64,000 nt of DNA from an uncultured Steroidobacteraceae bacterium (GCA_964396335.1 CAYNEX010000001.1:762-64761); one strand, 5' to 3'. Numbered from the stretch's first letter, positions 6,103 through 51,610 are shown. Program-made: numbers and translations. Notes: a model not told the origin generated them from the sequence alone.

Positions 6103-7896
6103 ATGGCAAAACCAATGCAAACGCCGCTGCACCGCTTCAATTTCACGAAGCTGACGAAGGAACAGATCGGGCAGAAGCTGCGCGCGACCGAGGCCGGTCC
6201 GACCAGCGCTTCCGCGTTCTCGAATGTGCTGGCCGGCAGGACGCTGAAGATCATCACGAAGGACGGCCCGGTGCTGGAATACCGCTTCGGCACGAACCGC
6301 CGGCTGACGCTGAGCGAAAACGGCGGGCGTGCCGTGTCGGCGGGTTATGGCGAGCTGGCGTTGAACAAGCTGTTGTTCTTCTCGCACATGATCCCGGCCG
6401 AACAGAAGGGCTACAACGTGGTCATCGACCAGGCTACAAACCTCGCGACCGTGTTCGAGGTGTGGTTCTCCAGCGGCATCAGGCAGAACGCCGGCCGGCC
6501 GAATGAATTCACGCTGGATGACCGCGAGGTGCAGCGGCAGATCTATTTCGGGTACGTGGACAATGGCCAGCCGCCACCTGGGAACCTGCACCACTACACC
6601 AACCGCATCGCCGGCAAGGGCATCTGGTGGAAGCAGGATACCGGCATCGAGACCGTCGAACTGTATGCCTCGGTCGCCAACACCAATTTCGTCGAGCTGA
6701 CACGCCACGCGGACAACCTCAGCTGGGTGGCGCCGTCCGACTATGTGCTGATTGATGACCGCACCTTCGCCTACAACCGCACCGAGTGCGAGTTCTCCGG
6801 CATCCACACCTGCTTTGTGGTCGACCTGTACGACGTGAAGCAGATCGGCGTGCGGCTGGGGTTCAACGAGCGCGACGAGCTCGAGTACTACATGTTCCGC
6901 GGCGACGGCAAGGTGGTCGGACAGCTGGCGTACCTGGAGCCCTTCGACGAGCACGGCAAGAAGCCGCTGTTCGAGGTCAATGCCGGCGACCAGCCGGTGG
7001 CGAAGGGCGCGCGCGTGGCCTACCGGCCGGTGCGCAGCTTCACGCACATGACCGACGAGGCGGTGCATGAGGCTGCCCTGAAGCGCACCTCGGCATTCGG
7101 CAGCGCCGACGCTGCCGACGTGGCGCCGCAGGTGTCGATGGCCAGCAACAACATGCCGTTCTCCGACGTCCTCGTCGGCAAGGTCTTCACGGTGCGCCTG
7201 GACCACGGCGGGCCGGTGCGCGACTACCGCGTCAACGACAAGTTCAAGCTGCAGTTCCGTGACCACCGGGACAATGTCTGGCACGAGGTGGATTACCGCG
7301 CCTATGAGGGTGACACCAACCTTGCCTGGTTCAGCCACATCATCCCCGACAGCAAACCGCGCGCCAGCGTGCAGGTGGCGGTGGATTTCACCAATGGCCT
7401 GGTGACCAGCATCGAGTCCCACATGGGCACGCCGTATTACGGCAACGAGACCACCTATCGGGCGCTGTTCGGCGTGATCGAGATGGAAGGCATCGAGGCG
7501 CCGCTGTACATGCGGCATTCATTCACCGACGAGCTGGTGGGCCATGCCTGGTCCTGGTCCTATTCGGACCAGATGACTTCGATGCACCTGTATACCTCGC
7601 CGCACTCGATGTCGTGGACAATCTTCACCGCCAACCAGACCATGGGTTCGCAGTGGTGCTCGCCCTGCATCTACGTGAAGCTGCGCCCGGGCGTCTATCT
7701 GTTCTGCCAGAACGAGGAAGCCTGCAATGGCGCGCAGATGATCGAGCTGCTGAACACCAACATCTCGCATGACTGCGGCTTCAGCTTCAACGGCGGCGAG
7801 CGCGGCGTGAACCTGGGCGTGGTCGGCGGCATCGGCCGCCACATCGGCAAGTTCGACATCGCGCATTTCTACGGGCCGCGCAAGCGGGAGGTGTGA
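6103..7896 (+). CDS. Tandemly duplicated MoaF-like protein (two MoaF N+C modules), no signal peptide
   Basis: 597 aa. Two copies of the MoaF N-domain pattern (LAGRTLKIITKDGPVLEYRF and LVGKVFTVRLDHGGPVRDYRV). Two C-domain patterns (HYTNRIAGKGIWWK... and SFTDELVGHAWSWSYSD..YLFCQNEE) resemble Klebsiella MoaF (TDELIGK..YTYS..YLFVWREK). Confidence 0.7.
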   Translation: MAKPMQTPLHRFNFTKLTKEQIGQKLRATEAGPTSASAFSNVLAGRTLKIITKDGPVLEYRFGTNRRLTLSENGGRAVSAGYGELALNKLLFFSHMIPAEQKGYNVVIDQATNLATVFEVWFSSGIRQNAGRPNEFTLDDREVQRQIYFGYVDNGQPPPGNLHHYTNRIAGKGIWWKQDTGIETVELYASVANTNFVELTRHADNLSWVAPSDYVLIDDRTFAYNRTECEFSGIHTCFVVDLYDVKQIGVRLGFNERDELEYYMFRGDGKVVGQLAYLEPFDEHGKKPLFEVNAGDQPVAKGARVAYRPVRSFTHMTDEAVHEAALKRTSAFGSADAADVAPQVSMASNNMPFSDVLVGKVFTVRLDHGGPVRDYRVNDKFKLQFRDHRDNVWHEVDYRAYEGDTNLAWFSHIIPDSKPRASVQVAVDFTNGLVTSIESHMGTPYYGNETTYRALFGVIEMEGIEAPLYMRHSFTDELVGHAWSWSYSDQMTSMHLYTSPHSMSWTIFTANQTMGSQWCSPCIYVKLRPGVYLFCQNEEACNGAQMIELLNTNISHDCGFSFNGGERGVNLGVVGGIGRHIGKFDIAHFYGPRKREV

Positions 7897-8627
7897 TGGA
7901 CATCTTCAAGTCGTTCCGCCGACAGGCGGGAGCGGATACGGGGCGCCGCGCCTTCCTCTGGAGATTCGGCGCCGGAACCGCCGGTGCGATGGCCTCGGTG
8001 GCCGTGACTGCGAAGCCGGCAGGCGCCGAAGATCCCGCGCTGCGGGCGGCCTTGCTCGACGAAGAGAAGGCGCTGCGCAAGCTGCACCGGGATTTCCAGC
8101 AGGCCATCGATGAAGGGCGCCATGCGGAGGTCGTCGCGCTGTTCGCCGACGACGCGCAGGTGATCTTCAACGGCGGCGTGTTCGAGCGACGCGACCACGG
8201 CATCAGCCGGCTGTTCCGCGAGCATCTGCCGGCCCGCAAGGCCGGCGGCAGCATGCAGGCCGCGCCCGGATTCGCGTTGTCGCCCGCGCAGCAGCACGAT
8301 CGGGTCGAGGTGGCAAAGGATCTTCGTGCCGCCAGCGCGGTGTTCCCATATTCCATCCAGTGCGGCATGCCGATCGAATCCGGCAACTCGCTGGCCAGCA
8401 TGGCGCGGCTGCACGGCGAAGGGGTTCGCACCTGGTGGGAGGGTGGCCACTACCGCGTGGATTACCGCAAGGATGCGGAGGGCCGCTGGCAGATCAGCCG
8501 GCTCGAGTACGACACGGTGGTGCGCGCCGACTACCGGCCGGGACGCTCATATGCCAGCGCCATTTCGGTGCCCCGGCTGACGACGCGGTTCCCGCAGGAC
8601 CTGCAGGGACCGGACCGGCTGGCGTGA
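7893..8627 (+). CDS. Tat-signal NTF2-like (SnoaL_4-type) protein
   Basis: 244 aa. Twin-arginine motif TGRRAFLW followed by a hydrophobic stretch ending AKPAGA. SnoaL_4-like helix LRKLHRDFQQAIDEGRHAEVVALFADDAQVIF. Terminal strand EGRWQISRLEY. GTG 7893 or ATG 7896 overlaps the MoaF-like stop (TGA 7894-7896). GGGAGG RBS. Confidence 0.7.
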   Translation: MMDIFKSFRRQAGADTGRRAFLWRFGAGTAGAMASVAVTAKPAGAEDPALRAALLDEEKALRKLHRDFQQAIDEGRHAEVVALFADDAQVIFNGGVFERRDHGISRLFREHLPARKAGGSMQAAPGFALSPAQQHDRVEVAKDLRAASAVFPYSIQCGMPIESGNSLASMARLHGEGVRTWWEGGHYRVDYRKDAEGRWQISRLEYDTVVRADYRPGRSYASAISVPRLTTRFPQDLQGPDRLA

Positions 8628-12211: not shown

Positions 12212-12631
12212 ATGCAGGAACCGCGTGCCACGCCATCACCCGCCAGCCTGGATTTCCCGCTCGCGCTGATCGAGGAATTCCGCGCCAGCTATGCACCGGA
12301 CATCGTCTGGACGGCGCCCCGTCGCGGGGTGCAATGGTCGGGCCGTGACCAGGTGGTCACCAACCTGCTGCGCGAGGCGGCGGCGATGCAATCGCTGACC
12401 TTCACGCGCGTGCGCCGCAGCCGCAGCGACGAGAAGGTCATCGACGAGTTCGTGGTGCGATTCGTTTATGCCGGCGAGGGCATCGAGAACCTGCAGTTTC
12501 CGCCCGGCGCCGCCGTGGAACTGGAGCGGGTGCGTATCCTGGAATTGGCGGGCCAGCAGGTGGTGCGCGAAGCGGCGATCGAGACCTGGACGCTGCTGGC
12601 GCAGCGCGCCGCGGGTGCCGTCACTCCGTGA
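12212..12631 (+). CDS. Small NTF2-like/SnoaL-like protein (cytoplasmic)
   Basis: 139 aa with strong third-position G/C bias. Pattern of an N-terminal helix and a C-terminal beta-sheet (VELERVRILELAGQQVVREAAIETW) is consistent with the NTF2-like fold. The 3' end overlaps the convergent gene by 11 nt. Confidence 0.55.
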   Translation: MQEPRATPSPASLDFPLALIEEFRASYAPDIVWTAPRRGVQWSGRDQVVTNLLREAAAMQSLTFTRVRRSRSDEKVIDEFVVRFVYAGEGIENLQFPPGAAVELERVRILELAGQQVVREAAIETWTLLAQRAAGAVTP

Positions 12632-13341: not shown

Positions 13342-15504
13342 ATGAGCACGCTTCGCCATATCCAGCGCGCGGGATTCCTCTGCATGGCACTGCTGGCAGG
13401 CATGCTGGCCACGCCGCTGCAGGCCGCCCAGGCGGACAACACCGCGCTCGACGAGCTGGCCCGCGACACCGAACGCGCCGAGGCCATCCGCGCCGTGAAG
13501 AAGCTGCAGCATGCCTATTCGCAGTATGCGCAATACGGCCTGTGGAGCGACCTGGGCGCGCTGTTCGCCCGTGACGGCGAGTGGATCTGGGGCGATACCA
13601 CCGTGACGGGCCCGGCCGCGATCACCGCACATCACACCGACAAGGTGGGCGGCGGCCGCGCCGGCCTGCCCGAGGGTGTGGTCAACAGCCTGTTCGTCGA
13701 CGTGCCGCTGGTGAACCTGTCGGTGGATGGAAAGACCGCGCAGGCGCGCTGGTATGGCATCCACATGCTGGGCGGCGCGGCGGACGCGCGCTGGGAAAGC
13801 GGCACCTTCCAGAACGACTACGTGCTCGAGGACGGCGTCTGGAAGATTGCGCGCCTGCATTTCCACCCGCAGTTCGGCGGACCGTATGAGCAGGGCTGGA
13901 AGACCTTTGCCAGCCCACTGCCGCGCGTGCCTTATCACTTCAGGACCGAGGCGGAAGCAGGCACCCCGATTCCGCCGCCGTCAGGGCCCGCGCCGCGCAC
14001 GCGGGCAACGCTCGCCAGCCTCGAGAAGCGCATCGACACGCTCAATGCCGAGGATGCCGCGCGCAACCTGCAGAACGCGTATGGCTATTACGTCGACCGC
14101 AAGATGTGGGATGACGTCACCGACCTGTTCACCGCCGACGGCGTGCTCGAACTGGGCGGCATCGGCCTGTATGACGGCCCGGCCAACATCCGCCGCGCGC
14201 TGGAGCGGCATGGACCGGCCGGCCTGAAGGAAGGGCAGCTGCACGATCACCCGCTGTTCGACACCAATATCGAGATCTCGGCCGACGGCATGGAGGCGCA
14301 GCTGCGTGGCCTCGAGCTCGGCATGCTCGGCGACTACAGCAGCGGCACTGCGCACTGGGCCGTCAGTGTGTTCGTGAACCGTTTCGTGAAGCAGGATGGC
14401 GTGTGGAAGATCCGCGAGATGCGGGTGTTCCCGTTGCTGAAGACCGACTTCTACCAGGGCTGGGGCAAGAGCCGCATCGGCGTTGAAACGCCGGAGCAGC
14501 GCTTCGCGCCGAACCGGCCGCTGCCGGCTGCGGATGCGGGCGCGAACCTGATTCCCGCTTTCCTGCCGCATCCGGTCACCGGCCGTGAGGCCAGCTATCC
14601 GCGCGGCGCGCGCGTGGCGGCGAAGTCGCGGCTGCTGCCGGCGCCGGCCGCGCCGAAGGTGCAGGCTGTCGCGGGTTCGACCGATGAACGCATCGCCGAG
14701 GCGCGCCGCCGGCTGGCGCTGTCGATGGCATGGGATGGCGCGGCCAACATCACCGCCGCCTACACGCACTACATCGACGACAGCCAGTGGACCAGCATGG
14801 GCGCGATCTTCGCCCGCAACGGCAACAAGCAGGTGCCGTTCAATGGTTATTACATCGGGCCGGAGCGCATCGCGCATCGCCCCGGCGCTCGACCGGCGCC
14901 CAACGGCACCAATCCCGGCAATGGTGGCTGGCACTGGCTGATGCAGCCGGTGATCCACGTCGCGCCGGACGGACGTTCGGCCAAGATGCGCACGCGCCTG
15001 TTCCATCCGCTGCCCACCGCCACCGGCGGCATGATGGAAGGCGGCATGTATCCGAACAACCAGGCCGTGCTGGAGGACGGTGTCTGGAAATTGTGGACCA
15101 TCACCATCGACGAGCCGTATTTCACCGGCCGCTGGCCGACCGGCTGGGCGCGGCCGGCACCGCCGGCTCCGCCGCGCGGCGCAGCCGCCGGGGCACCGGG
15201 AGCGGCTGCCGGCGCTCCACGCGGTGGCGGCGGGGCCGGAAGTGCGCCGGCCACACCGCCGTTGCCGGGCGCCATCCTCTATCCGCCCAACATCTCCAAT
15301 GCGCTGCTCGGCCGCCGCATGGAAGGTTTCGTCGGCGGCACCGGTGAGCCCGTCCGCTGGCCCGGCCTGCTGCCGATGTGGTTCCACTACAAGAATCCGG
15401 TCAGCGGCCGGGAGCCGGAGCGCTACTGGCCCAACTGCGCCACCTGCGAATACGCACCCGGCACCAGCATGGACCAGTACGGCTACCTGCTGCCGGAGAC
15501 CTGA
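13342..15504 (+). CDS. Secreted protein with three tandem NTF2-like (SnoaL_4-type) modules
   Basis: The supplied ORF was trimmed to ATG 13342 (AGGAAGGA RBS; signal peptide ...ATPLQAAQA). Three modules each begin with an A.R.LQ.AY..Y.D...W helix and end with an EDGVWKI-type strand plus GW. Gly/Ala/Pro linker at about 15140-15270. C-terminal PHPVTG and KNPVSG motifs. Confidence 0.8.
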   Translation: MSTLRHIQRAGFLCMALLAGMLATPLQAAQADNTALDELARDTERAEAIRAVKKLQHAYSQYAQYGLWSDLGALFARDGEWIWGDTTVTGPAAITAHHTDKVGGGRAGLPEGVVNSLFVDVPLVNLSVDGKTAQARWYGIHMLGGAADARWESGTFQNDYVLEDGVWKIARLHFHPQFGGPYEQGWKTFASPLPRVPYHFRTEAEAGTPIPPPSGPAPRTRATLASLEKRIDTLNAEDAARNLQNAYGYYVDRKMWDDVTDLFTADGVLELGGIGLYDGPANIRRALERHGPAGLKEGQLHDHPLFDTNIEISADGMEAQLRGLELGMLGDYSSGTAHWAVSVFVNRFVKQDGVWKIREMRVFPLLKTDFYQGWGKSRIGVETPEQRFAPNRPLPAADAGANLIPAFLPHPVTGREASYPRGARVAAKSRLLPAPAAPKVQAVAGSTDERIAEARRRLALSMAWDGAANITAAYTHYIDDSQWTSMGAIFARNGNKQVPFNGYYIGPERIAHRPGARPAPNGTNPGNGGWHWLMQPVIHVAPDGRSAKMRTRLFHPLPTATGGMMEGGMYPNNQAVLEDGVWKLWTITIDEPYFTGRWPTGWARPAPPAPPRGAAAGAPGAAAGAPRGGGGAGSAPATPPLPGAILYPPNISNALLGRRMEGFVGGTGEPVRWPGLLPMWFHYKNPVSGREPERYWPNCATCEYAPGTSMDQYGYLLPET

Positions 15505-30063: not shown

Positions 30064-30458
30064 TGTCCTCCGCCAGGCATGAACCGCAGCGGATCGCGCA
30101 CGACGAGTTCCACGAACCGGAGCCGTACACGCTGCGCGGCTACCTGGTGGGCTTCGGCGTTTCGGCGCTGCTGACCATCCTTGCCTTCTGGATCGTGATG
30201 AGCGGTGTCATTCCGCGCGCCGGCCTGGCCAGCGCGGCGGTGGTAACGCTGGCGGTGATCCAGATCCTGGTGCAGACCGGCGCCTTCCTGCACGTCAACT
30301 CGCGCGCGCAGGGCGGCTGGACGCTGATCGCCTATGTGTTCACGGCGGTCCTGCTGCTGATCACCATCGCCGGCTCGGTGTGGATCATGTATCACCTGAA
30401 CGTGAACATGATGCCGGGCATGATGCAGGCCGATCCGCCGGTCAACCAGCCGCCGTGA
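30063..30458 (+). CDS. cyoD: Ubiquinol oxidase subunit IV
   Basis: The supplied ORF was trimmed to ATG 30063 (TGATG overlap with cyoC). 131 aa with three TM helices, in the expected operon position. Confidence 0.85.
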   Translation: MSSARHEPQRIAHDEFHEPEPYTLRGYLVGFGVSALLTILAFWIVMSGVIPRAGLASAAVVTLAVIQILVQTGAFLHVNSRAQGGWTLIAYVFTAVLLLITIAGSVWIMYHLNVNMMPGMMQADPPVNQPP

Positions 30459-31162
30459 CCGCCAGCCGCGGCAAGCGGCTGGGACTGCTTGCGCTGTGTG
30501 CCATCGGCATCCTGCTGTTCGGCTCGCTGGGCGCGTGGCAGGTGCAGCGCCTGGGCTGGAAGCGCGACCTGATCGCGCGCGTTGATTCGCGCATCCACGC
30601 TGAGCCGGTTTCCCTTCCACCGCGGGCGGAATGGTCCAGGCTCGAGCCGCATGATGTCGAATACCGGCGCGTGCAGCTGCACGGCCACTTCCTCTACCAG
30701 CACGACACCCTGGTGGACGCGGTCACTGAACTGGGCGATGGCTGGTGGGTACTCACGCCGCTGGAGAGCGATGAGGGACTTGTGTGGGTGAATCGTGGCT
30801 TCGTCCCGCGGGAGCAGGGCGGTTCGATTCCGGGCACGCAGGGCAAGGGTGAGGTGCAGGTTACCGGCCTGCTTCGCCGCACCGAACCGGAGGGCCGCAT
30901 CCTGCGCCCCAATCGCCCGGAGGAAGCCCGCTGGTTCTCCCGCGACGTGCAGGCCATGGCCGCGGCGCGCGGGCTGGGCGAGGTGGCGCCGTTCTTCATC
31001 GATGCCGAAGCGCAGCCCGGCAGCAATGAATGGCCACGTGGCGGCATGACGGTGGTGACCTTCCGCAATGCCCACCTGAGTTACGCCCTGACCTGGTTCG
31101 GGCTGGCGGGCCTGTGCGCGGCGGGAGGCGTGCTGGTGCTGCGCGATTCGCCCAGCGCTTAG
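30455..31162 (+). CDS. SURF1-family assembly protein
   Basis: The GTG start at 30455 overlaps the cyoD stop (GTGA). N-terminal TM plus WQVQRLGWKRDLIARV, and a C-terminal TM (LSYALTWFGLAG), are typical of SURF1/Shy1. Confidence 0.8.
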   Translation: MTASRGKRLGLLALCAIGILLFGSLGAWQVQRLGWKRDLIARVDSRIHAEPVSLPPRAEWSRLEPHDVEYRRVQLHGHFLYQHDTLVDAVTELGDGWWVLTPLESDEGLVWVNRGFVPREQGGSIPGTQGKGEVQVTGLLRRTEPEGRILRPNRPEEARWFSRDVQAMAAARGLGEVAPFFIDAEAQPGSNEWPRGGMTVVTFRNAHLSYALTWFGLAGLCAAGGVLVLRDSPSA

Positions 31163-33219
31163 CGCGGAGCGCCAGCTGGCGCAGCTTCCACCGCAGCCGC
31201 GGCCACCGAGATCAGGTACGCCCGCAGCGCCACCGTATCCCCCTCCTTCAGGTATTCACGGAACGAAGCCATGCCCCGTTCCGCCAGCACGCCGTCGAGC
31301 ACGATGGTATCCATCAGCTGCTGGTTCTCCAGCGCCGGTGAACGCCGCAGGTCCGGGAAGGTGGAGCGCGCTGCGCCATTGCGGCCATGGCAGGTCTGGC
31401 ATTGTTCCTCGAAAACCGCGGCCCCGCGCTGGATGGTGGCCGCGTCCGCGAACTGCGGCGGCGGCGCGATCGGCCGCTGCGTGAACGGCGGCAGTTCCGG
31501 CAGCACAGTCGTGCCGCCGAGGCCGAATACCAGCAGGCGCGCGCCATTGGGCGCGTAGTAGCCGCCGGGCACCGGGCCGCCCACGGCGATCGCCACATAC
31601 TGCCTGCCATCAAGCTCGTAGCTGATCGGGCTCGCCAGCACGGCGGTCTTCGTGTCGAAGCTCCACAGCCTTTCGCCATCGGTGGCCCGATAGGCGGCGA
31701 ACTCGCGTTTCGGCAGGTTGCCGTGGAAGACCAGGTTGCCGCCGGTGGCCAGCGCGCCGGCCGTGACCTGCACGCCGCCGCTGGGATTGATGAACTCCTC
31801 GCTGCGCCACACCTCGCGCTGCTGCACCGGGTCCCAGGCCATCAGCCGGCCGGTAAAGCCGGTCGGCGTGTTCGGATTGTCGGCGAGGTATTTCTGGCGC
31901 GCTTCCAGCGGACCGGTGAGCTGCCAGTGCGTGGTGGCCGGGATGTACACCAGGCCCGTCTTCGGGCTGTATGACATCGACTGCCAGGCGTGGCCGCCCG
32001 CGGGTCCCGGGGCGAGGTTGAACACCTTGCCGGTGACATTCGGTCGCGCCTCGGGCACTTCGACGGGGCGTCCGGTCTCCAGGTCGACGCCCTTCGCCCA
32101 GTTCACGTCGGTGTAGGGCTTCGCGGCCAGCAGCTTTCCATTGGCCGGATCGAGCAGGTAGAAGAAGCCGTTCTTCGAGGCCTGCGCCACCACGCGGCGC
32201 TTCCCACCGTTGATGGGCAGTTCCATCAGGGTCAGCTGCTGGCCGGTGTCGTAGTCCCAGGTCTCCCAGGGCGTGGGCTGGTAATGCCAGCCATAGCTGC
32301 CGTCCCGGGCATGCAGCGCCACGATCGAGGTCATGAACAGGTTGTCGCCGCCGCCCGCGTCGCGGCGCATCGCATCACCCGGTGTGCCATTGCCGGTGCC
32401 GAACATGACCAGGTCGTTGACCGGGTCATAGGTGATGGCATCCCACACCGTGCCGCCACCGCCGCCGATCCACCAGCCCGGTGTCTTCCAGGTGGTCGCG
32501 GCCATTTCCATGGTGTCGTTCTCGAAGCCCTGCGCCGGATCACCGGGCACGGTCCAGAAGCGCCACAGGCGTTTGCCGGTTTCGGCGTCATAGGCATCGA
32601 TGTGGCCGCGCACGTCGAATTCGCCGCCGGCGGAGCCGATGAACACCATGCCATTGGCGACGCGCGGTGCGCCGGTGATCGAATAGCGTCGTTCATCCGG
32701 CGTGACCTTGGTGCTCCACACCTCATCGCCGGTCTTCGCATCCAGCGCAATCAGTCGGCCGTCGAGCGTGCCGAAGAGGATGCGGCCCTTCCAGGCTGCG
32801 GCACCGCGGTTGTCCACGCCGCAGCACAGGTTGATGTTCCAGGCGCCGGCCACCTTCGGGTCGTGCAGCCAGAGCTGTTCGCCGGTGCGCGCATCCACCG
32901 CCATCACCTTGCTCCATGGCAGGGTGACGTACAGCACGCCATCGATCATCAGTGGCGTGGTTTCGATGTTCTGGTTGGTGGGCAGGTCGATGTACCAGGC
33001 CAGGCCCAGTTCGCCGACATTGTTCTCGTTGATGCGGTCGAGCGGGCTGTAGTGCTGCGCATCGAAGGTGCGGTCATAGCTCAGCCATTGGCCGGGTTCC
33101 TGGTCGGCATTGAGCAGGCGCTGCATGTCCACCTGTGCCGGCGCCTTCGCCTTTTGCTGGCAGCCGCCCAGCGCGGCGGCTCCGATCACGGCAAGCAATA
33201 TCCATTTCGGCGATGCCAT
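31159..33219 (-). CDS. Quinohemoprotein PQQ-dependent alcohol dehydrogenase (type II: propeller plus C-terminal cytochrome c), lipoprotein signal
   Basis: 686 aa. Lipobox AALGGC|Q. Vicinal disulfide NLCCGVDNRGAA. Catalytic region ETWDYDTGQ. Propeller W-motifs. C-terminal haem motif CQTCHGRNGA. GGGAGA RBS. Confidence 0.9.
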   Translation of the reverse strand: MASPKWILLAVIGAAALGGCQQKAKAPAQVDMQRLLNADQEPGQWLSYDRTFDAQHYSPLDRINENNVGELGLAWYIDLPTNQNIETTPLMIDGVLYVTLPWSKVMAVDARTGEQLWLHDPKVAGAWNINLCCGVDNRGAAAWKGRILFGTLDGRLIALDAKTGDEVWSTKVTPDERRYSITGAPRVANGMVFIGSAGGEFDVRGHIDAYDAETGKRLWRFWTVPGDPAQGFENDTMEMAATTWKTPGWWIGGGGGTVWDAITYDPVNDLVMFGTGNGTPGDAMRRDAGGGDNLFMTSIVALHARDGSYGWHYQPTPWETWDYDTGQQLTLMELPINGGKRRVVAQASKNGFFYLLDPANGKLLAAKPYTDVNWAKGVDLETGRPVEVPEARPNVTGKVFNLAPGPAGGHAWQSMSYSPKTGLVYIPATTHWQLTGPLEARQKYLADNPNTPTGFTGRLMAWDPVQQREVWRSEEFINPSGGVQVTAGALATGGNLVFHGNLPKREFAAYRATDGERLWSFDTKTAVLASPISYELDGRQYVAIAVGGPVPGGYYAPNGARLLVFGLGGTTVLPELPPFTQRPIAPPPQFADAATIQRGAAVFEEQCQTCHGRNGAARSTFPDLRRSPALENQQLMDTIVLDGVLAERGMASFREYLKEGDTVALRAYLISVAAAAVEAAPAGAPR

Positions 33220-33247
33220 TCCCTGGTCTCCCGTTGGCTCATGCGAA

Positions 33248-33274
33248 GAAGCCGGAGTGTTCAGCTCCGGCTTC
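33248..33274 (-). other. Intercistronic stem-loop between the NTF2-like trio and the PQQ dehydrogenase gene
   Basis: Perfect 10-bp inverted repeat GAAGCCGGAG/CTCCGGCTTC with a 7-nt loop, inside the 64-nt gap (33220-33283). Only a weak T-run follows on the minus strand. Confidence 0.35.
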
Positions 33275-33283
33275 GTGTGTCGA

Positions 33284-34069
33284 TCAGCGGCGTGGTGGCT
33301 CCGCCAGTGGCTGCGAGCCGTCCACCATGCGGCCCACCTTCAGGGCCTCCATCTGTTCCTTCGTCCCGGGAGGCGCGGCATAGGCACCGACCTCGTCGCG
33401 ATCCGGCTTGAACACATTGCCCGTGACCGGGTTCGGGTAGTGGAATGGAATGATGTAGTAGGCCGGGTAGGTCAGGTAGATGGTGGAAGGCGGCAGGTCC
33501 GGCGGTGGATCGAACTTGTCCGGCCAGGTGTTGTTCAACGCATTGCGCCCCCAGCCTTCCCAGTTGGTGTACATCGTGAACGGACCGGTGAGCCGGCTGA
33601 TCTTCCAGACGCCGTTCTCCTTGCGGTATTCGTTCTCGTACATCGGCAGGCCCCAGCCGCCCGAGCTCATCACATAGGCGCGCGCGCGGATCCAGCCGCG
33701 GGTGCCATCGGCGGAGATGTCGGGGATCGACTGGAACTGCATGTGGTTGGCCAGCGAGTTCTCCTTCGCGCCATCCGGGCCGAAGGCGGTCTGCATGTAC
33801 TCCAGCACGCGGTGCTTGCCGAGGAACAGGCCCTTGCCGCCGATCTCCAGCGTGGCGTCGTCGCTGAACAGGTCGGCCAGCGGCGTCCACTGGCTCTTGT
33901 CGACGAAGTAGCCATAGGTGCGCTGCAGGCGCTCGATGTCGTTCATGTCCTCCAGCGTGGTGATGCGCTTGTCGAGGGCATCGAGCCGCTCGGCAGCGGA
34001 CTGCGCCAGCGCGCCGGTGGAGGTGAGGGCGGCCAGCACGGCCGCTGCGATCAGGGTTGTGCGCTTCAT
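33284..34069 (-). CDS. Secreted NTF2-like (SnoaL_4-type) protein, paralogue 3 of the trio
   Basis: 261 aa. Sec signal ...STGALAQS. LEDMNDIERLQRTYGYFVDKSQWTPLADLFSDDATLEI. YENEYRKENGVWKISRL. GWGRN. PPPDLPPST. YPNPVTG. ATGA overlap with the upstream paralogue. Confidence 0.8.
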   Translation of the reverse strand: MKRTTLIAAAVLAALTSTGALAQSAAERLDALDKRITTLEDMNDIERLQRTYGYFVDKSQWTPLADLFSDDATLEIGGKGLFLGKHRVLEYMQTAFGPDGAKENSLANHMQFQSIPDISADGTRGWIRARAYVMSSGGWGLPMYENEYRKENGVWKISRLTGPFTMYTNWEGWGRNALNNTWPDKFDPPPDLPPSTIYLTYPAYYIIPFHYPNPVTGNVFKPDRDEVGAYAAPPGTKEQMEALKVGRMVDGSQPLAEPPRR

Positions 34070-34815
34070 CGTACGGCTCCCGTGACGCTGTCCGCGGCCT
34101 GTGGCAGGCGGTCGAGCGGCTGCCCGGTGACCGGATGCGGATAGCTGAAGGGTGGAATGTAGTTGCCCGGCATGGTGCGGTAGACCACGGTGGGCGGCCG
34201 GTCCGGCGGGAAGATCGCGCTGGGGCCCTTCATCGGCAGCAGCGATCGGGCCCAGCCGCGGTCATAGTCGGTGAACGCAGTGGGATAGAAATGCAGCCGC
34301 TGGATCTTCCAGGTGTTGCCTTCCTTCACGTATTCGTTCTCGTAGATGCCCACGCCCCAGATGCCGTTCTGGCCCGGCTCGGCCAGCTGTACCGGGCCCT
34401 GGAAACGTCCCTTTGCGGTGCGGCCGTCGCTGGCAACCGTGATCACCGGCTGCAGCATCATGTGGTTGTTCAGGTAACCACGGCCGAGGTTCTCCGGTCC
34501 GAACAGCAGCATTGCGCGGCGGATGCGATCGGGACCGACATACACGCCGCTCTGGCCATATTCGAACTCGCCGTTGCGGGCGAAGAGGCTGGCGGCCTCG
34601 TTCCACAGGCCCTTGTCGAAGTAGTAGCCGAACATCGCCTGCAGGTTCTCGATGGCGTCGTGGTCCTCCAGGCGCGCAACGCGTTCACGATAGGCGGCAA
34701 GGCGCTGTGCCGGCGTGGCATTGGCGCCCGGCGACTGCGCGGCAAGGGCCGGCGCGGTGGCCAGCAGCAGGCCGGCGACGGCGGCGGCGGAAATGAACTG
34801 GAACGGGCGGGCCAT
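34066..34815 (-). CDS. Secreted NTF2-like (SnoaL_4-type) protein, paralogue 2 of the trio
   Basis: 249 aa. Signal ...ATAPALAAQS. LEDHDAIENLQAMFGYYFDKGLWNEAASLFARNGEFEY. YENEYVKEGNTWKIQRL. GWARS. PPDRPPT. YPHPVTG. Its ATG shares one base with the upstream stop (TGATG). Confidence 0.8.
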   Translation of the reverse strand: MARPFQFISAAAVAGLLLATAPALAAQSPGANATPAQRLAAYRERVARLEDHDAIENLQAMFGYYFDKGLWNEAASLFARNGEFEYGQSGVYVGPDRIRRAMLLFGPENLGRGYLNNHMMLQPVITVASDGRTAKGRFQGPVQLAEPGQNGIWGVGIYENEYVKEGNTWKIQRLHFYPTAFTDYDRGWARSLLPMKGPSAIFPPDRPPTVVYRTMPGNYIPPFSYPHPVTGQPLDRLPQAADSVTGAVR

Positions 34816-35516
34816 CAGCGGACTCCTTTCACCGGCTTGCCGGTGACCGGGTTGGGCGCCTGGAAGGGCGGCACCTGCGGATCGGGGAAGGCGGCATAGG
34901 TTTCGGTCGGCGGCCGATCCGGCGGGAAGTCCCGCGAGGTCTGGCTGGCCTTCAGGCCTTCGCCGGGCTTCAGGCGCGCCCAGCCTTTCTCATAGGGCAC
35001 CTCGAAGTTCACGTACAGGTGCAGGGACTTGATCTTCCACACCCCGTCTTCTTTCACGTAGGTGTTCTCGTAGATGCCATCGCGCCATTCGGCGTGCTTC
35101 TTGTACTGGCCCAGCATGCCGTGGTCGCGCCAGCGCGCGGTGGCGCTGCGGCCGTCGGCGGAGATGAACACCGCCGGCTGCAGCGTCACCCATTCGTTGA
35201 GCTGGCCGTAGATCAGGCCCTCCTGGTTGCCATGCAGGCGCTTCAGGTATTCGCGGATGCGCGCCTTGCCCACGTACACGCCATCAAGGCCGATCTCGAT
35301 GGTGCCGTTGTCGGCGAACAGGTCGGCCGCCTCGCCCCACAGGCCGCGGTCGACGTAATAACCGAAGGCGCGCTGCAGTTTCTTCACCGCGCGCGTGCCT
35401 TCGAGTTTCTCGACGCGCGCGGTCAGCGCGTCGATCTCCGCGTCGATGTTCTGCGCCTGCGCGTTGGCGCAGGCCAGCATCGACATGACGAGGCAGGTAC
35501 TCAGCAATCGTTTCAT
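34815..35516 (-). CDS. Secreted NTF2-like (SnoaL_4-type) protein, paralogue 1 of the trio
   Basis: The supplied ORF was trimmed to ATG 35516 (GGAGA RBS). Signal or lipobox MSMLAC|ANAQA. LEGTRAVKKLQRAFGYYVDRGLWGEAADLFADNGTIEI. YENTYVKEDGVWKIKSL. GWARL. PPDRPPT. APNPVTG (34839-34856). Confidence 0.8.
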   Translation of the reverse strand: MKRLLSTCLVMSMLACANAQAQNIDAEIDALTARVEKLEGTRAVKKLQRAFGYYVDRGLWGEAADLFADNGTIEIGLDGVYVGKARIREYLKRLHGNQEGLIYGQLNEWVTLQPAVFISADGRSATARWRDHGMLGQYKKHAEWRDGIYENTYVKEDGVWKIKSLHLYVNFEVPYEKGWARLKPGEGLKASQTSRDFPPDRPPTETYAAFPDPQVPPFQAPNPVTGKPVKGVR

Positions 35517-35548
35517 GGTTTCTCCATGCTTGCGGCCCCTGAAGGAGT

Positions 35549-36106
35549 TCATCGGCCGGTTGCTCTTCTTTCGCGGATGAACTTCATCCATTCCTCCGCG
35601 GTGGGCATCACAGGATAGTCGACGCGCCGCAGGATCTTCCATTCGCCGTGTTCGCGGACCAGCTCATCCTCATAGCGGCCGGCCAGCGCCGGAACGGGTT
35701 CGCCGCCGGGTCCGCGCATCACCAGCAGGTGCCGCGAGCGCGCCGTGGCGCGATCACCCTGCACATCGATCTGCGGATTCGAGGTGATGTGGTAACTCTC
35801 GTTGTTCACATAGTCGGCCGGCGTGGGGCCGTACAGGTCGAGCAGCATGCTGTGGATGGCCTCGCGGCCCTTGTGCACGGTGCGGCCGTTGACCCATTCA
35901 CCGTCGCGCGCGAACAGCGCGACGTAGGCTTCGTAGTCACGCGCATCCTGCGTGGCGGAGTAATCGACCAGGATGCGGCGGATGGCCAGTTCGTCCTCGA
36001 CGCGCTGCAGGCGTTCGGCCAGTCCGGCCTGCGCGGCACGGTCGGTGCACGCGGCGGTCAGGGCAGATGCCATCAGCACCAGCGCGAGCTGCACGGTCCG
36101 CTTCAT
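35549..36106 (-). CDS. NTF2-like (SnoaL_4-type) lipoprotein
   Basis: 185 aa. Lipobox ALTAAC|T. VEDELAIRRILVDYSATQDARDYEAYVALFARDGEWVNG. Terminal strand EHGEWKILRRV. Confidence 0.75.
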   Translation of the reverse strand: MKRTVQLALVLMASALTAACTDRAAQAGLAERLQRVEDELAIRRILVDYSATQDARDYEAYVALFARDGEWVNGRTVHKGREAIHSMLLDLYGPTPADYVNNESYHITSNPQIDVQGDRATARSRHLLVMRGPGGEPVPALAGRYEDELVREHGEWKILRRVDYPVMPTAEEWMKFIRERRATGR

Positions 36107-36137
36107 TCGCCCCCCTCCGTTTCCGCCAAGCCTAACG

Positions 36138-36911
36138 CTAGAAGGACTCGCCGGGGCCCAGGTAGCGCCACTTTCCCACCGGCAGGCCGCCGAGCAGCAC
36201 CCTGCCGCTGCGCACGCGCTTCAGCGCGGTGACCTTCAGGCCCACCATCTCGCACATGCGGCGGATCTGCCGCTTGCGGCCCTCGCGCAGCAGGAAGCGC
36301 AGCTGGTGCGCGTTCTGCCATTCCACCTTTGCGGGCCGCAGCTTCACGCCATCGAGAGACAACCCGTGGCGCAGGCGGCGCAGGCCGTCTTCAGCCAGCC
36401 GGCCCTCGACACGCACCAGGTATTCCTTCTCGACGCTGGAATCCTGGCCGATCAGCTGTCTGGCGACGCGGCCATCCTGGGTCAGCACGAGCAGGCCCGT
36501 GGAGTCGATGTCGAGGCGGCCGGCCGGTGCCAGGCCGTGCAGGTGACGGGATTCGAAGCGGCGCGGCGAGGAGTCGCCGTTCCAGTGGTTTTCCGGCTTG
36601 ATCAGCACGATCGCCGGTTCGTAACCATCCTCGGCCTGGCCGGAGACGTAACCGACCGGCTTGTGCAGCAGGATGGTGACCAGGTCCTGCTGCGCGTCGC
36701 GCGCGGCCTGCTCCACGGTGATCTTCGCCTGCGGCGGGACCCGCACGCCCAGTTGGTCGACCACCTGGCCGTCGACCTTCACCCAGCCTTTCACGATCCA
36801 CGCCTCGGCCTCGCGCCGCGAGCACAGGCCGAGTTCGCTCATGCGCTTGGACAGCCGCGGATTCGCCGCGCCTTCCGGGGCCGGTGCCGGCGGGGCGCGG
36901 CCGGCCATCAC
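36138..36911 (-). CDS. RsuA/RluF-family rRNA pseudouridine synthase with an S4 domain
   Basis: 257 aa. S4 motif [11 protein letters not shown]. Catalytic [28 protein letters not shown]. The start (GTG 36911 or ATG 36908) overlaps the gloA stop. Confidence 0.8.
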
Positions 36912-37327
36912 CAGGTCCCGACGTTGGGCATTTCGTTCCAGGGTGCCTTCGGCGGCAGGGCGTCGCCCTGCTGCAGCAGCTCGATCGAGATCTGGTCCGG
37001 CGAACGCACGAAGGCCATCCTGCCGTCGCGCGGCGGACGCAGGATCTGCACGCCATGCTGCTGCAGGCGTTCGCAGGCGGCGTAGATGTCCGGCACTTCA
37101 TAGGCCAGGTGGCCGAAGTTGCGGCCGCCGGTGTATTTCTCCGGATCCCAGTTGAAGGTCAGCTCCACCTGGGCATCGTGCTGGCCGGGCGCTGCCAGGA
37201 ACACCAGCGTGTAACGGCCCTGCGGGACCTCATGCTTCTTCACCACTTCCAGTCCCAGCGCATCGCGGTAGAAGCGCAGCGATTCCTCGAGGTCAGTGAC
37301 GCGGACCATGGTGTGCAGGTATTTCAT
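36908..37327 (-). CDS. gloA: Lactoylglutathione lyase (glyoxalase I)
   Basis: 139 aa. [27 protein letters not shown] and [12 protein letters not shown] are typical of small Ni-type GloA. Confidence 0.9.
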
Positions 37328-37372
37328 GGAGGATCTTCGGCCGTTGGAGGGAAGGGGATTGTAAGCCGCGGC

Positions 37373-38011
37373 TCAGCGTTCTTCGGCCAGCGCGCGCTGC
37401 AGGCCGGCGCGGAAGGCGGTGGCGCCGCCCATCGAGGGGTGGCGCAGCGGCGTGGCGGCGATGCCCACATCCGCCAGCGAGGCCTCGGCATTGCGGCCGA
37501 CGGCAAAGCAGCGTACCCCGGGCAGCGCGGCCAGCAGGGCCTCGAGCACCGGCAGGCCGGCGCGGCGTTCCTGCGGAGTGGGGGTGCGGTTCGACTGTGG
37601 CACCCCGGGGCGGTGCGGGTGCCAGGGATAGGCGTTCCACAACAGCGTGTCCTCGGCCCGGTGCAGCGCATGCAGCGTGCTCCAGACCGTGGTGGCCGAG
37701 GGCTCGCTCCAGGGACGCGTGCGGGTGGAAAGCCGCTGGCCGCCGATGTCGACGCGCGGCACGGCGCCGGCCAGCAGCAGGCGTTCACTGGTGAAGGGAA
37801 TGCCACTGACATGCGCGCCCTGGTAGCCGGCGGCCTCACCCAGCAGCAGCCAGCGGGGCCTGGTGTCGAAAAAGGCGCGCAAGCGTGCCAGTCGTGCCTT
37901 CGCGGCATGGGGGATGGCGTCGGTGCCGTGGTCCTGGTCCCGCCATGGATTGAACACGGCCATGGGGGCGGGGGCGACCAGCAGGTCGAAGAATCGGTCG
38001 AGTCGGGACAC
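37373..38011 (-). CDS. Uracil-DNA glycosylase superfamily protein (family not assigned)
   Basis: 212 aa. Motif-A-like LLLGEAAGYQGAHVSGIPFTSE and motif-B-like LRHPSMGG. Confidence 0.65.
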   Translation of the reverse strand: MSRLDRFFDLLVAPAPMAVFNPWRDQDHGTDAIPHAAKARLARLRAFFDTRPRWLLLGEAAGYQGAHVSGIPFTSERLLLAGAVPRVDIGGQRLSTRTRPWSEPSATTVWSTLHALHRAEDTLLWNAYPWHPHRPGVPQSNRTPTPQERRAGLPVLEALLAALPGVRCFAVGRNAEASLADVGIAATPLRHPSMGGATAFRAGLQRALAEER

Positions 38012-47677: not shown

Positions 47678-48742
47678 TTATTCCCAGCCGGTCGGCGAGT
47701 TGTAGGGCGCCTGGAAGCCCATCGCCTCGATCTCGTGCATCAGGCCATCGGGCCCGATCTTGTAGATGTGCGCGGCGGGCAGGTCGAACGGCGCGAAATT
47801 CAGGTCCTTCTGCGTGCGCTCGATCAGCGTGCCGTCCATGGCCTTGACCATGTAGGGCAGGTTGTCCATCGGATGACGGAAGTGCGACAGGCCCATCACC
47901 AGCCCCGTCACCGGGTCGGCCGCGAACACGCGCCGGTTGTCGATGCGGTCGATGTACTGGAAGGTGTTGCTGCTGAGCTGCTCGGCGCAGTCGCGTGACA
48001 CCTGCGGCGTGGGCGTCGTGCCCGGCACGGCCGGCGCGGTGCTCGGCGGTCCGCCGGCCGTGACCATGCCGTTTTCATGGCGGCGGCAGTCCTTCGCGAA
48101 CGGCGTCAGGCTGCCGTCGTTGTCATCCAGCGCGTCGTAATAAGACAGGCCGATGCGGACCAGCTCGTCATGCGGCAGGCGCTTGTCCGCGGGGATCTCG
48201 GTGAAGATGCCCGGGCGCGGCGTCTGCAGGTTCGCCAGCACGTTCTCGCGCACGCCGCTGTGCAGGTGCTCGGCCTCGGTGATCCTGCCATCGGCATCGA
48301 ACTTCAGCCGCAGCGCGACGATCACCGGCTGTTCGGTCGGCGGCGTGCTCGCGGCCCACGCGGCGCGCTCCTCGGCGGTGGCACCCTGCGGTGCGGGCGG
48401 CGGTGCCAGATGGGTCATCATGCCGAGGAAGCCGGCTGACTGGTTGATCTCGTCGGGCACATGGATGGCGAAGGTGGACGGCCCTTTCACCAGCGACTTC
48501 CACAGTCCGCCTTCGCCGGGCTGCATGCGGGTGATGTTGTCGACGAGGGCGACGTTGTCGGCCAGCGGTGCCTGCGATGGATCGTGTGCCACCAGTGCCG
48601 CGATGTAGGCGTCCGTGGCATCCACCAGGCACTGGCGGTCGCAGGCTGCCCCGGTGGTCGACTTGCCGCAGGCCGACAGGGCCAGCACGGCGGCGGTTGC
48701 GGCCGCCACGGCGGCCGGCTTCAGGATTGCTTTGTTCGACAT
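47678..48742 (-). CDS. Lipoprotein, apparently two NTF2-like halves
   Basis: 354 aa. Lipobox VLALSAC|G. Each half starts with an ...AYIAALVAHD... or ...LSYYDALDDND... helix and ends with a DGRITEAEHL- or DGLMHEIEAM-type strand. Confidence 0.6.
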   Translation of the reverse strand: MSNKAILKPAAVAAATAAVLALSACGKSTTGAACDRQCLVDATDAYIAALVAHDPSQAPLADNVALVDNITRMQPGEGGLWKSLVKGPSTFAIHVPDEINQSAGFLGMMTHLAPPPAPQGATAEERAAWAASTPPTEQPVIVALRLKFDADGRITEAEHLHSGVRENVLANLQTPRPGIFTEIPADKRLPHDELVRIGLSYYDALDDNDGSLTPFAKDCRRHENGMVTAGGPPSTAPAVPGTTPTPQVSRDCAEQLSSNTFQYIDRIDNRRVFAADPVTGLVMGLSHFRHPMDNLPYMVKAMDGTLIERTQKDLNFAPFDLPAAHIYKIGPDGLMHEIEAMGFQAPYNSPTGWE

Positions 48743-51344: not shown

Positions 51345-51610
51345 GCCTCGCTCCTTGGTTCACACGCGAGGCCACCGGCGGAAACACGAACACAGCAACG
51401 GGCTGACGACGCCGGGAGAATCCGGCTGCCGGCAACCCCGCTATCTGTGAATCACTCGTGGATTCCAGACCGGAGGCTTTGCGTCCCCGTCTCGCGACGG
51501 GTTTGCCTTTGTCTTCCGTGAATTAAAGGCGGCAGCAACTGCCTGCTCAATCGGGGAAAGTCTGATGGAGACCGCCCGCAACGGGCGTTCCGTGATGCGT
51601 CGCGCATTCT

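Follow-up and report, generated by a model that had tools for sequence, protein, structure and literature searches.

Locus organisation

In a stretch of 64,000 nucleotides (nt) from an uncultured Steroidobacteraceae bacterium (GCA_964396335.1, CAYNEX010000001.1:762-64761), hereafter called the window, four genes for SnoaL_4 (NTF2-like) proteins lie on the minus strand next to a gene for a quinohaemoprotein alcohol dehydrogenase (ADH) of the pyrroloquinoline quinone (PQQ) type. The four genes are labelled N1, A, B and C in this work, and A, B and C together are referred to as the trio. A previous inspection of this DNA, made from its letters alone and called here the sequence-only reading, had proposed five minus-strand genes at this place. 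All five open reading frames were confirmed at the following coordinates, counted from the first nucleotide of the window:

N1, 35549..36106, minus strand: SnoaL_4 protein of 185 amino acids (aa), with a lipobox-like N-terminus (ALTAAC) and without C-terminal arm (open reading frame and Pfam).
A, 34815..35516, minus strand: putative secreted LdpA-like NTF2 subunit of 233 aa, predicted to be catalytically degenerate (Pfam and residue census).
B, 34066..34815, minus strand: putative secreted LdpA-like NTF2 subunit of 249 aa (PDB sequence search, AlphaFold2 model, residue census).
C, 33284..34069, minus strand: putative secreted LdpA-like NTF2 subunit of 261 aa, predicted to be the main catalytic subunit (Pfam and residue census).
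Stem-loop in the spacer between C and the ADH gene, 33248..33274, minus strand (RNA fold).
Quinohaemoprotein PQQ ADH, 31159..33219, minus strand: 686 aa (Pfam, TIGR03075, PDB match).

The start codon of A was taken at MKRLL, which yields the 233-aa product; the longest open reading frame extends to 35642. A gap of 32 nt separates N1 from A. At the A-B junction (TGATG, 34815) the stop codon of A (TGA) and the start codon of B (ATG) share one nucleotide, and at the B-C junction (ATGA, 34066-34069) the start codon of C overlaps the stop codon of B by 4 nt. The distance between the stop codon of C and the start codon of the ADH gene is 64 nt. Both overlaps and the spacer read as the sequence-only reading had described them. 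At the other end of the ADH gene, the stop codon overlaps that of a convergent SURF1-like gene (30380-31162, plus strand) at 31159-31162.

The products of N1, A, B and C match the Pfam model SnoaL_4 (PF13577) far above its gathering cut-off of 24 bits: 97.6 bits for N1 (expectation value, E, 7e-28), 86.9 for A (1.4e-24), 101.4 for B (4.8e-29) and 68.8 for C (5.8e-19). Identity to B amounts to 43% for A and 38% for C; N1 shares 27-32% identity with the trio and does not have the C-terminal extension of A, B and C. Read from the sequence, the N-termini are basic, then hydrophobic, and end in AQA/ALA or in a Cys lipobox; the signals are Sec-like in A, B and C, and lipoprotein-like in N1 (ALTAAC) and in the ADH (ALGGC). 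The view that this locus encodes four secreted NTF2-like proteins is thus upheld by the domain matches and by the signal-like N-termini. In databases, the proteins of the trio appear only as 'nuclear transport factor 2 family protein', 'SnoaL-like domain' or 'hypothetical protein'.

Relationship with the lyase LdpA

When the sequences of the PDB were searched with B, the best solved relative was LdpA (8ABT, 8ABU, 8ABV, 8ABW). Residues 31-231 of B align with residues 4-227 of the 8abt chain (E 1.3e-32) over both the core and the C-terminal arm, from the first helix to the C-terminal segment FPPDRPPT...PPFSYPHPVTG. Structure modelling covered B among the four SnoaL_4 proteins. The AlphaFold2 (AF2) model had a predicted local distance difference test score (pLDDT) of 77 and a predicted template modelling score (pTM) of 0.72, with a confident core (residues 35-183) and a low-confidence C-terminal tail. 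The top Foldseek matches of this model were the LdpA chains, with template modelling (TM) scores of 0.67-0.73 and 36-38% identity, followed by BaiE, scytalone-dehydratase-like proteins and LinA; all 50 top matches listed have the NTF2 fold (an alpha+beta cone). The SnoaL_4 matches and the model of B therefore agree with the NTF2 fold on which the sequence-only reading depended.

LdpA is a cofactor-less lyase that converts erythro-1,2-diguaiacylpropane-1,3-diol (DGPD), a lignin beta-1 dimer, into lignostilbene, formaldehyde and water (PMC9942872). The enzyme is a homotrimer held together by a C-terminal arm that clasps the neighbouring subunit (PMC9942872). Its essential residues comprise a His97-Asp40 dyad (motif I), a Glu143-Tyr165-Gln170 triad (motif II), Tyr35 and Tyr147; mutation of Glu143 abolishes activity, and motif II allows the enzyme to produce its own quinone-methide electron sink (PMC9942872).

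Altogether, A, B and C are identified as putatively secreted homologues of LdpA, which is the closest characterised relative of the trio, a point missed by the sequence-only reading. Both have the NTF2/SnoaL_4 cone and a long C-terminal arm, with about 37% identity and with core and arm aligned, and sphingomonads are found among the hosts of both. LdpA is trimeric by virtue of its arm; for the trio, we infer a trimer from this likeness. The differences are also conspicuous. LdpA is the product of one gene, forms a homotrimer and has no signal peptide, whereas the trio is made of three co-conserved paralogues in fixed order, each with a signal-like N-terminal extension and one of them degenerate. 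Because cytoplasmic LdpA has no such extension, its alignment beginning at residue 31 of B, and because no extension is present in the B half of the natural A-B fusions described below, the extensions of A, B and C are best explained as export signals.

Other NTF2 enzymes resemble the trio less closely. PcfL of N. aromaticivorans, which acts as deformylase on the beta-5 dimer intermediate DCA-C, is also a cofactor-less lyase of the NTF2 superfamily active on lignin-derived dimers (PMC12997858); compared by description only, it is a single enzyme for which neither a hetero-oligomer nor secretion nor a PQQ-ADH partner has been reported. The bile-acid 7-alpha-dehydratase BaiE, scytalone dehydratase and LinA are the next-best matches in sequence and structure, and share with the trio the SnoaL_4 domain and an acid-base chemistry based on His and Asp (plus Tyr). 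However, identity is only about 20-26%, the long C-terminal arm is missing, each enzyme is the product of one gene, and none is known to have its gene beside that of a PQQ dehydrogenase. Their substrates have either an electron sink or a group that leaves readily, and a beta-keto group, or a sink equivalent to it, is present in the typical substrates of NTF-2-like dehydratases (PMC9942872).

Unequal conservation of catalytic residues in A, B and C

All orthologues of A (75 sequences), B (74) and C (78) were aligned to residues 4-227 of LdpA, and the residues found at the essential positions were counted:

LdpA Tyr35: Phe in 70/75 A, Phe in 63/74 B, Tyr in 78/78 C.
LdpA Asp40: Asp in 75/75 A, 74/74 B and 78/78 C.
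LdpA His97: Trp in 65/75 A, His in 71/74 B, His in 78/78 C.
LdpA Glu143: Arg in 67/75 A, Gly in 62/74 B, Gly in 78/78 C.
LdpA Tyr147: Tyr in 70/75 A, 73/74 B and 78/78 C.

The motif I dyad is therefore kept in C and B, together with Tyr147, and is broken in A, where Trp takes the place of His. Tyr35 and Tyr147 form the oxyanion hole of LdpA; C has both in every sequence, and in A and B Tyr35 has mostly given way to Phe, with Tyr147 nearly always present. N1 retains the Tyr, Asp and His positions. Motif II, essential in LdpA, is replaced in all three members of the trio: besides the substitutions of Glu143, the census found Leu, Phe or Gly in place of Tyr165, and the position of Gln170 is variable. 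Since motif II is absent, the LdpA reaction is not expected of the trio, and the possibility that A, B and C are DGPD deformylases of the LdpA type was rejected. A seems to be devoid of catalytic function, though no complete locus has lost it. C, and probably B, still has the acid-base machinery that NTF2 eliminases share.

Conservation of the trio across genomes

A scan of one genome per species yielded 74 loci that encode a relative of B. The hosts are Steroidobacteraceae and other gammaproteobacterial metagenome-assembled genomes (MAGs), as well as Sphingomonadales that include Altererythrobacter, Croceibacterium, Aurantiacibacter, Erythrobacter, Sphingobium and Novosphingobium. The arrangements found were:

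A-B-C: 56 loci.
A-B-C-C': 7 loci.
Trio truncated or fragmented, most at a contig end: 8 loci.
Identity below the 55% cut-off, gene order unchanged: 3 loci.

The order A-B-C recurs in 74/74 loci, which indicates that the arrangement in the window is not due to chance, and no complete locus is devoid of any trio gene. The coupling that the sequence-only reading had seen in the overlapping codons of the window is also conserved. The distance between the stop codon of A and the nearest in-frame start codon of B is -4 or -1 nt in 59/65 loci; that between B and C is -4 or -1 nt in 53/66 loci, a count that rises to 65/66 if a distance of +2 nt is included. Compared with their counterparts in the other proteobacterial class, the window proteins show a high identity, mostly 60-85%, and A orthologues are typically 233-234 aa long. 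N1 is found directly upstream of A in 9/67 loci, among them the closest relatives of the window locus (L009-L011).

Variants of the arrangement were also detected. A tandem duplicate of C (A-B-C-C') occurs in several Erythrobacteraceae. Ahead of the main A-B-C(-C') set, 3-5 kb upstream, four loci of Alphaproteobacteria/Sphingomonadales also carry another, divergent N1-A'-B'-C' whose identity with the window trio is 46-54%; it is found at about 2000-6000 in L043, L045 and L051 and at 1727-4129 in L054.

Natural fusions and single-chain relatives

Fusions of A and B occur in nature. Two were found, P0008 (424 aa; L087, 8001-9275) and P0086 (430 aa; L088, 655-1947); both have a short linker in place of the signal peptide of B, and in both the next gene is C. 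A third protein, P0263, aligns as a partial A-B fusion. The catalytic His is present in the A half of the fusions, while the B half has Tyr instead, a pattern that is the reverse of that of the unfused genes. This observation was read from a mixed alignment of fusions and A and B orthologues that mis-registers B sequences onto the A half, and the alignment was left out of modelling. The switch of the catalytic His between halves in the fusion lineage suggests that selection may act on the set and not on the single subunit.

A related gene, which we label T3, is found elsewhere in the window:

T3 (separate locus), 13342..15504, plus strand: putative secreted single chain of 720 aa with three LdpA-like SnoaL_4 domains.

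A single signal peptide precedes the domains of T3. SnoaL_4 matches the chain in three stretches (E 1e-63), whose correspondence with A, B, C and LdpA was established domain by domain with blastp. Domain 1 has no equivalents of Asp and His, and domains 2 and 3 retain both, so that in T3 too the degenerate unit comes first. T3 thus appears to be the single-chain counterpart of the trio, another relationship that had escaped the sequence-only reading. An identical gene call is found on at least 23 public contigs, and the family of full-length homologues (600-750 aa) is diverse, with 224 cluster representatives at E <=1e-30. No NCBIfam model was found for A, B, C or T3. The occurrence of a three-domain chain, a two-plus-one fusion and three coupled genes points to a pseudo-trimer or heterotrimer built on the LdpA plan.

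The neighbours of T3 are a SnoaL_2 gene (12212-12631), a gene for a 164-aa SnoaL_4 protein (minus strand), and genes for a cupin, a gamma-glutamyltranspeptidase and an FAD oxidoreductase. Another coupled pair with a SnoaL_4 member lies at 6103-8627 (plus strand): the gene for a protein of 597 aa that has both the N- and the C-terminal domain of MoaF (6103-7896) overlaps by 4 nt the start of the gene for a 244-aa SnoaL_4 protein (7893-8627), and this SnoaL_4 protein has a twin-arginine-like signal (RRAFLWRFGAG).

The dehydrogenase and its association with the trio

The ADH encoded downstream of C is made of an 8-bladed PQQ propeller and a C-terminal cytochrome c domain (Pfam Cytochrome_CBB3, residues 595-669), and passes TIGR03075 with 546 bits (cut-off 480), in agreement with its previous identification as a PQQ/haem-c ADH. 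A single CxxCH motif is present, and the propeller contains a vicinal Cys-Cys. The best PDB match of the ADH is the type II quinohaemoprotein ADH 1kv9 (E 2.8e-169), with which it aligns across nearly the entire chain. The propeller, the vicinal Cys-Cys and the C-terminal single-haem cytochrome c are shared with the type II enzymes ADH IIB (1KV9), ADH IIG (1YIQ) and qhEDH (1KB0). The window ADH differs from these by its lipobox (LGGC) and by the sequence WDYDT at the metal site, and the solved type II enzymes are described without NTF2 partners.

The metal-site motif, PWETWDYDT, places an Asp two residues past the catalytic Asp. At the same site, 1yiq, 8gy2, 1kv9 and 1kb0 show WDYTA, WDYTS or WDFTA, and PedH (6zcv) shows WDFDG. 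The window ADH therefore has WDYDT rather than the Thr-type motif that marks the Ca2+-type site of solved type II/III enzymes. PedH is a lanthanide-dependent dehydrogenase, and the WDYDT group may be a clade of lanthanide-dependent quinohaemoprotein ADHs. The motif is kept in 112/120 window-ADH homologues among the matches listed (61-100% identical). Most ADHs adjacent to the trio in other genomes carry WD[YWF]TC.

Association of the trio with quinohaemoprotein ADHs had been proposed from the window alone, and was examined across the locus set. In 26/57 loci for which 2.5 kb or more of downstream sequence is available, the trio is immediately followed on its own strand by the gene of an ADH homologue (40-47% identical to the window ADH). 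Among loci with at least 8 kb of flank on both sides, 24/40 have an ADH homologue within 10 kb. When clustered at 55% identity, the ADHs beside the trio make up at least three groups, among which the window ADH is a singleton, and representatives of the two neighbouring clades are quinohaemoproteins. The arrangement is also variable: besides ABC-ADH and the window type, there are loci of Steroidobacteraceae and other MAGs with the order ADH-N1-A-B-C (L005-L008, L012, L022), and divergently oriented upstream ADHs occur in several Erythrobacteraceae. The trio is thus statistically associated with quinohaemoprotein ADHs, and the association is not obligate. The proposed co-occurrence holds in that an ADH is so often the next gene, and is not a rule, L009-L011 having none at this position.

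An orthologue of the window ADH is found in L085 (6001-10945), where it is followed by a gene for a 217-aa SnoaL_4 protein and then by a second quinohaemoprotein ADH gene; a BufA1/MbnB/HvfC/DoxX (bufferin-like) cluster precedes the orthologue.

Spacer, signals and other neighbours

The spacer between C and the ADH gene contains a hairpin with a perfect 10-bp stem, in which GAAGCCGGAG is separated from CUCCGGCUUC by a 7-nt loop; the 81-nt spacer region folds at -29.4 kcal/mol (z = -2.45). The hairpin may be a weak terminator or a stabiliser. The intrinsic terminator scan did not call it, and its T-tract is poor. Scans of 30900-37400 for sigma-70 promoters and intrinsic terminators returned nothing above the expectation from shuffled sequence, and the locus gave no match to the RNA families of Rfam.

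Genes other than ADH are also recurrent around the trio. In 20 loci, the gene directly upstream of A encodes a strictosidine-synthase/SMP-30-like propeller protein with a length of about 370 aa. DUF8021-type proteins are found nearby in 23/74 loci, and further recurrent neighbours are AraC regulators, TonB-dependent receptors and a molybdenum hydroxylase. No NCBIfam models were found for the DUF8021-type and propeller neighbours. The window itself encodes, at 47678-48742 (minus strand), a 354-aa lipoprotein (ACDRQC) that is a distant DUF8021-type homologue (23-28% identity) without Pfam or NCBIfam match. Polyvinyl alcohol, polyethylene glycol, lupanine and steroid pathways were considered as contexts for the trio, and none was specifically supported by the neighbourhoods. 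Unrelated to the trio, a c-di-GMP-I (GGC variant) riboswitch aptamer (RF03167) is found at 51427-51516 (minus strand), with 67 bits against a gathering score of 59.

A putative heterotrimeric enzyme of the periplasm

We propose that N1-A-B-C is a conserved periplasmic enzyme module in which A, B and C form a 1:1:1 heterotrimeric acid-base lyase or dehydratase. It builds on what was observed (homology with LdpA, residue patterns, the fixed order and overlaps of the genes, natural fusions, statistical association with ADHs), whereas the heterotrimer itself, the parts that the subunits play in catalysis, the sequence of reactions and the class of substrate are inferred. As a whole, this proposal seems to us evenly poised between right and wrong. 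Its parts fare better: an enzymatic role of the trio is likely, and the assembly of A, B and C into a heterotrimer is only slightly less so.

According to the proposal, A, B and C would be exported to the periplasm and assembled there in equal numbers, with the C-terminal arms wrapped around neighbouring subunits as they are in the homotrimer of LdpA. The stop/start overlaps would promote equimolar synthesis. The His-Asp acid-base dyad and tyrosine residues of an oxyanion hole would be at work in C and probably in B, while A would have a non-catalytic role, either structural or in the positioning of the substrate. The chemistry is probably nearer to that of BaiE or scytalone dehydratase than to that of LdpA: a cofactor-less beta-elimination, a dehydration, a retro-aldol cleavage or an isomerisation. 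Because motif II is missing from the trio, the substrate probably bears a carbonyl or an equivalent sink already.

The carbonyl might be made from an alcohol by the quinohaemoprotein ADH, in such a manner that oxidation precedes elimination; alternatively, the ADH might oxidise the product. In either case its electrons would pass to the respiratory chain. There is precedent for the former order, as a dehydrogenase installs the electron sink before BaiE acts, and scytalone dehydratase follows the same order of reactions. Alcohols derived from lignin or phenylpropanoids, or other hydroxylated compounds, are the candidate substrates and might be taken up via TonB-dependent receptors. The broadest form of the proposal envisages a class of secreted heterotrimers (made of coupled genes, of a fusion plus C, or of a single chain) that would work with quinohaemoprotein ADHs, possibly lanthanide-dependent in this case, in periplasmic oxidise-then-eliminate reactions by which lignin-derived or other hydroxylated compounds would be cleaved or dehydrated. 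We regard this broadest form as speculative and rather doubtful.

Alternative explanations

Several observations weigh against the proposal, and they concern both the heterotrimer and the dehydrogenase. As to the heterotrimer, both B and C look catalytically competent, so A, B and C may form three separate homotrimers. AF2 modelling of the A-B fusion P0008 for the subunit interface was unusable (pLDDT 42, pTM 0.28), and other LdpA homologues with 40% identity or less, from N. aromaticivorans and SYK-6, are inactive on DGPD (PMC9942872). A, B and C might thus be independent homotrimeric isoenzymes that serve one pathway with different specificities for substrates or stereoisomers. Each paralogue has a signal peptide and a C-terminal arm of its own, the His-Asp dyad is found in both B and C, the characterised relative LdpA is a homotrimer, and several stereospecific paralogues are frequent in lignin-dimer pathways (PMC12997858). 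Isoenzymes are difficult to reconcile, however, with a protein A that is without the catalytic His in 65/75 sequences and yet is never lost, with the conservation of gene order and stop/start overlaps, and with the existence of natural A-B fusions and three-domain single chains; furthermore, in the fusions His is found in the A half and not in the B half, as if only the whole set mattered. We therefore consider three isoenzymes improbable. Even less probability is given to a third idea, that the trio is a small-molecule binder or carrier of the periplasm that might deliver a hydrophobic compound, either substrate or product, to the dehydrogenase or a transporter, or take it over from one of these. 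Many NTF2-fold proteins bind small molecules, A has lost catalytic residues, and TonB-dependent receptors are frequent near the trio. However, one would not predict for a mere carrier that Tyr35, Asp40, His97 and Tyr147 be invariant in 78/78 C sequences and His97 be kept in 71/74 B sequences, and the nearest relatives by sequence and structure (LdpA, BaiE, scytalone-dehydratase-like proteins and LinA) are all enzymes.

As to the dehydrogenase, the closest relatives of the window locus (L009-L011, with B proteins 80-92% identical) carry N1-A-B-C in the same slot, flanked by homologues of rluF, gloA and the lytic-transglycosylase region upstream and by SURF1-cyoDCBA downstream, and have no ADH: nothing lies between C and SURF1. 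In L009 and L010 it is the C gene, not an ADH gene, that abuts SURF1. Conversely, when two orthologues of the window ADH (78-79% identity) were looked up, each was found in another conserved gene neighbourhood, from which the trio is missing. The ADH gene is therefore a recent arrival beside the module, as fits an insertion in this lineage, and its adjacency to the trio in the window is a lineage-specific juxtaposition. The module read by the sequence-only reading from this single locus is supported by the recurrence of ADHs beside the trio, and is weakened as regards the window arrangement. In addition, the stop codons of the ADH gene and the convergent SURF1 gene overlap, a stable hairpin separates C from the ADH gene, and 16/40 well-flanked loci (about 40%) have no ADH within 10 kb. 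One may thus argue that an ADH gene was inserted by chance between C and SURF1, and that the trio, functionally unrelated to it, acts alone or with partners such as the DUF8021-type proteins (23/74 loci) or the propeller (20 loci). Against such an explanation, quinohaemoprotein ADHs make up a small fraction of genes, and yet one of them is the next gene in 26/57 loci; non-orthologous ADH clades are found beside the trio in at least three different arrangements; and the SnoaL_4 gene of L085 is sandwiched by two quinohaemoprotein ADH genes. An entirely unrelated ADH is therefore unlikely in our opinion, although it is the strongest of the competing explanations. That non-orthologous ADHs recur beside the trio speaks for a functional link between the families, towards which we lean slightly. 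A link between the trio and the particular ADH of the window is harder to sustain, and our opinion inclines modestly against it.

Novelty and biological meaning

Our search of the literature found no description of the trio, nor of secreted, multi-subunit or multi-domain LdpA-like proteins. Nothing was found either that links SnoaL/NTF2 proteins to PQQ/quinohaemoprotein enzymes or to periplasmic heterotrimers, in line with the view of the sequence-only reading that no NTF2-fold partners of quinohaemoprotein ADHs have been described. The known kind to which the trio would belong is the NTF2 trimeric lyase; what seems to be new is its hetero-oligomeric, periplasmic form, an architecture for which comparison across genomes gives good support, whereas its function and its partnership with the ADH are proposals.

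Cofactor-less NTF2-fold lyases such as LdpA are pursued for the cleavage of carbon-carbon-linked lignin dimers. If the heterotrimer is real, a secreted three-subunit version with one catalytically dead subunit would represent a new architecture for this enzyme class, and could explain the apparent inactivity of LdpA homologues that have been expressed singly. The hypothesis is directly testable because carriers of the trio include culturable species: Altererythrobacter lauratis, A. palmitatis, Croceibacterium xixiisoli, Sphingobium xanthum and species of Aurantiacibacter. Sphingomonadales and Steroidobacteraceae are known degraders of aromatics and steroids. If the pairing with ADHs is functional, these bacteria would possess an uncharacterised two-step pathway in the periplasm, and quinohaemoprotein dehydrogenases, supposedly self-contained, would gain a partner.

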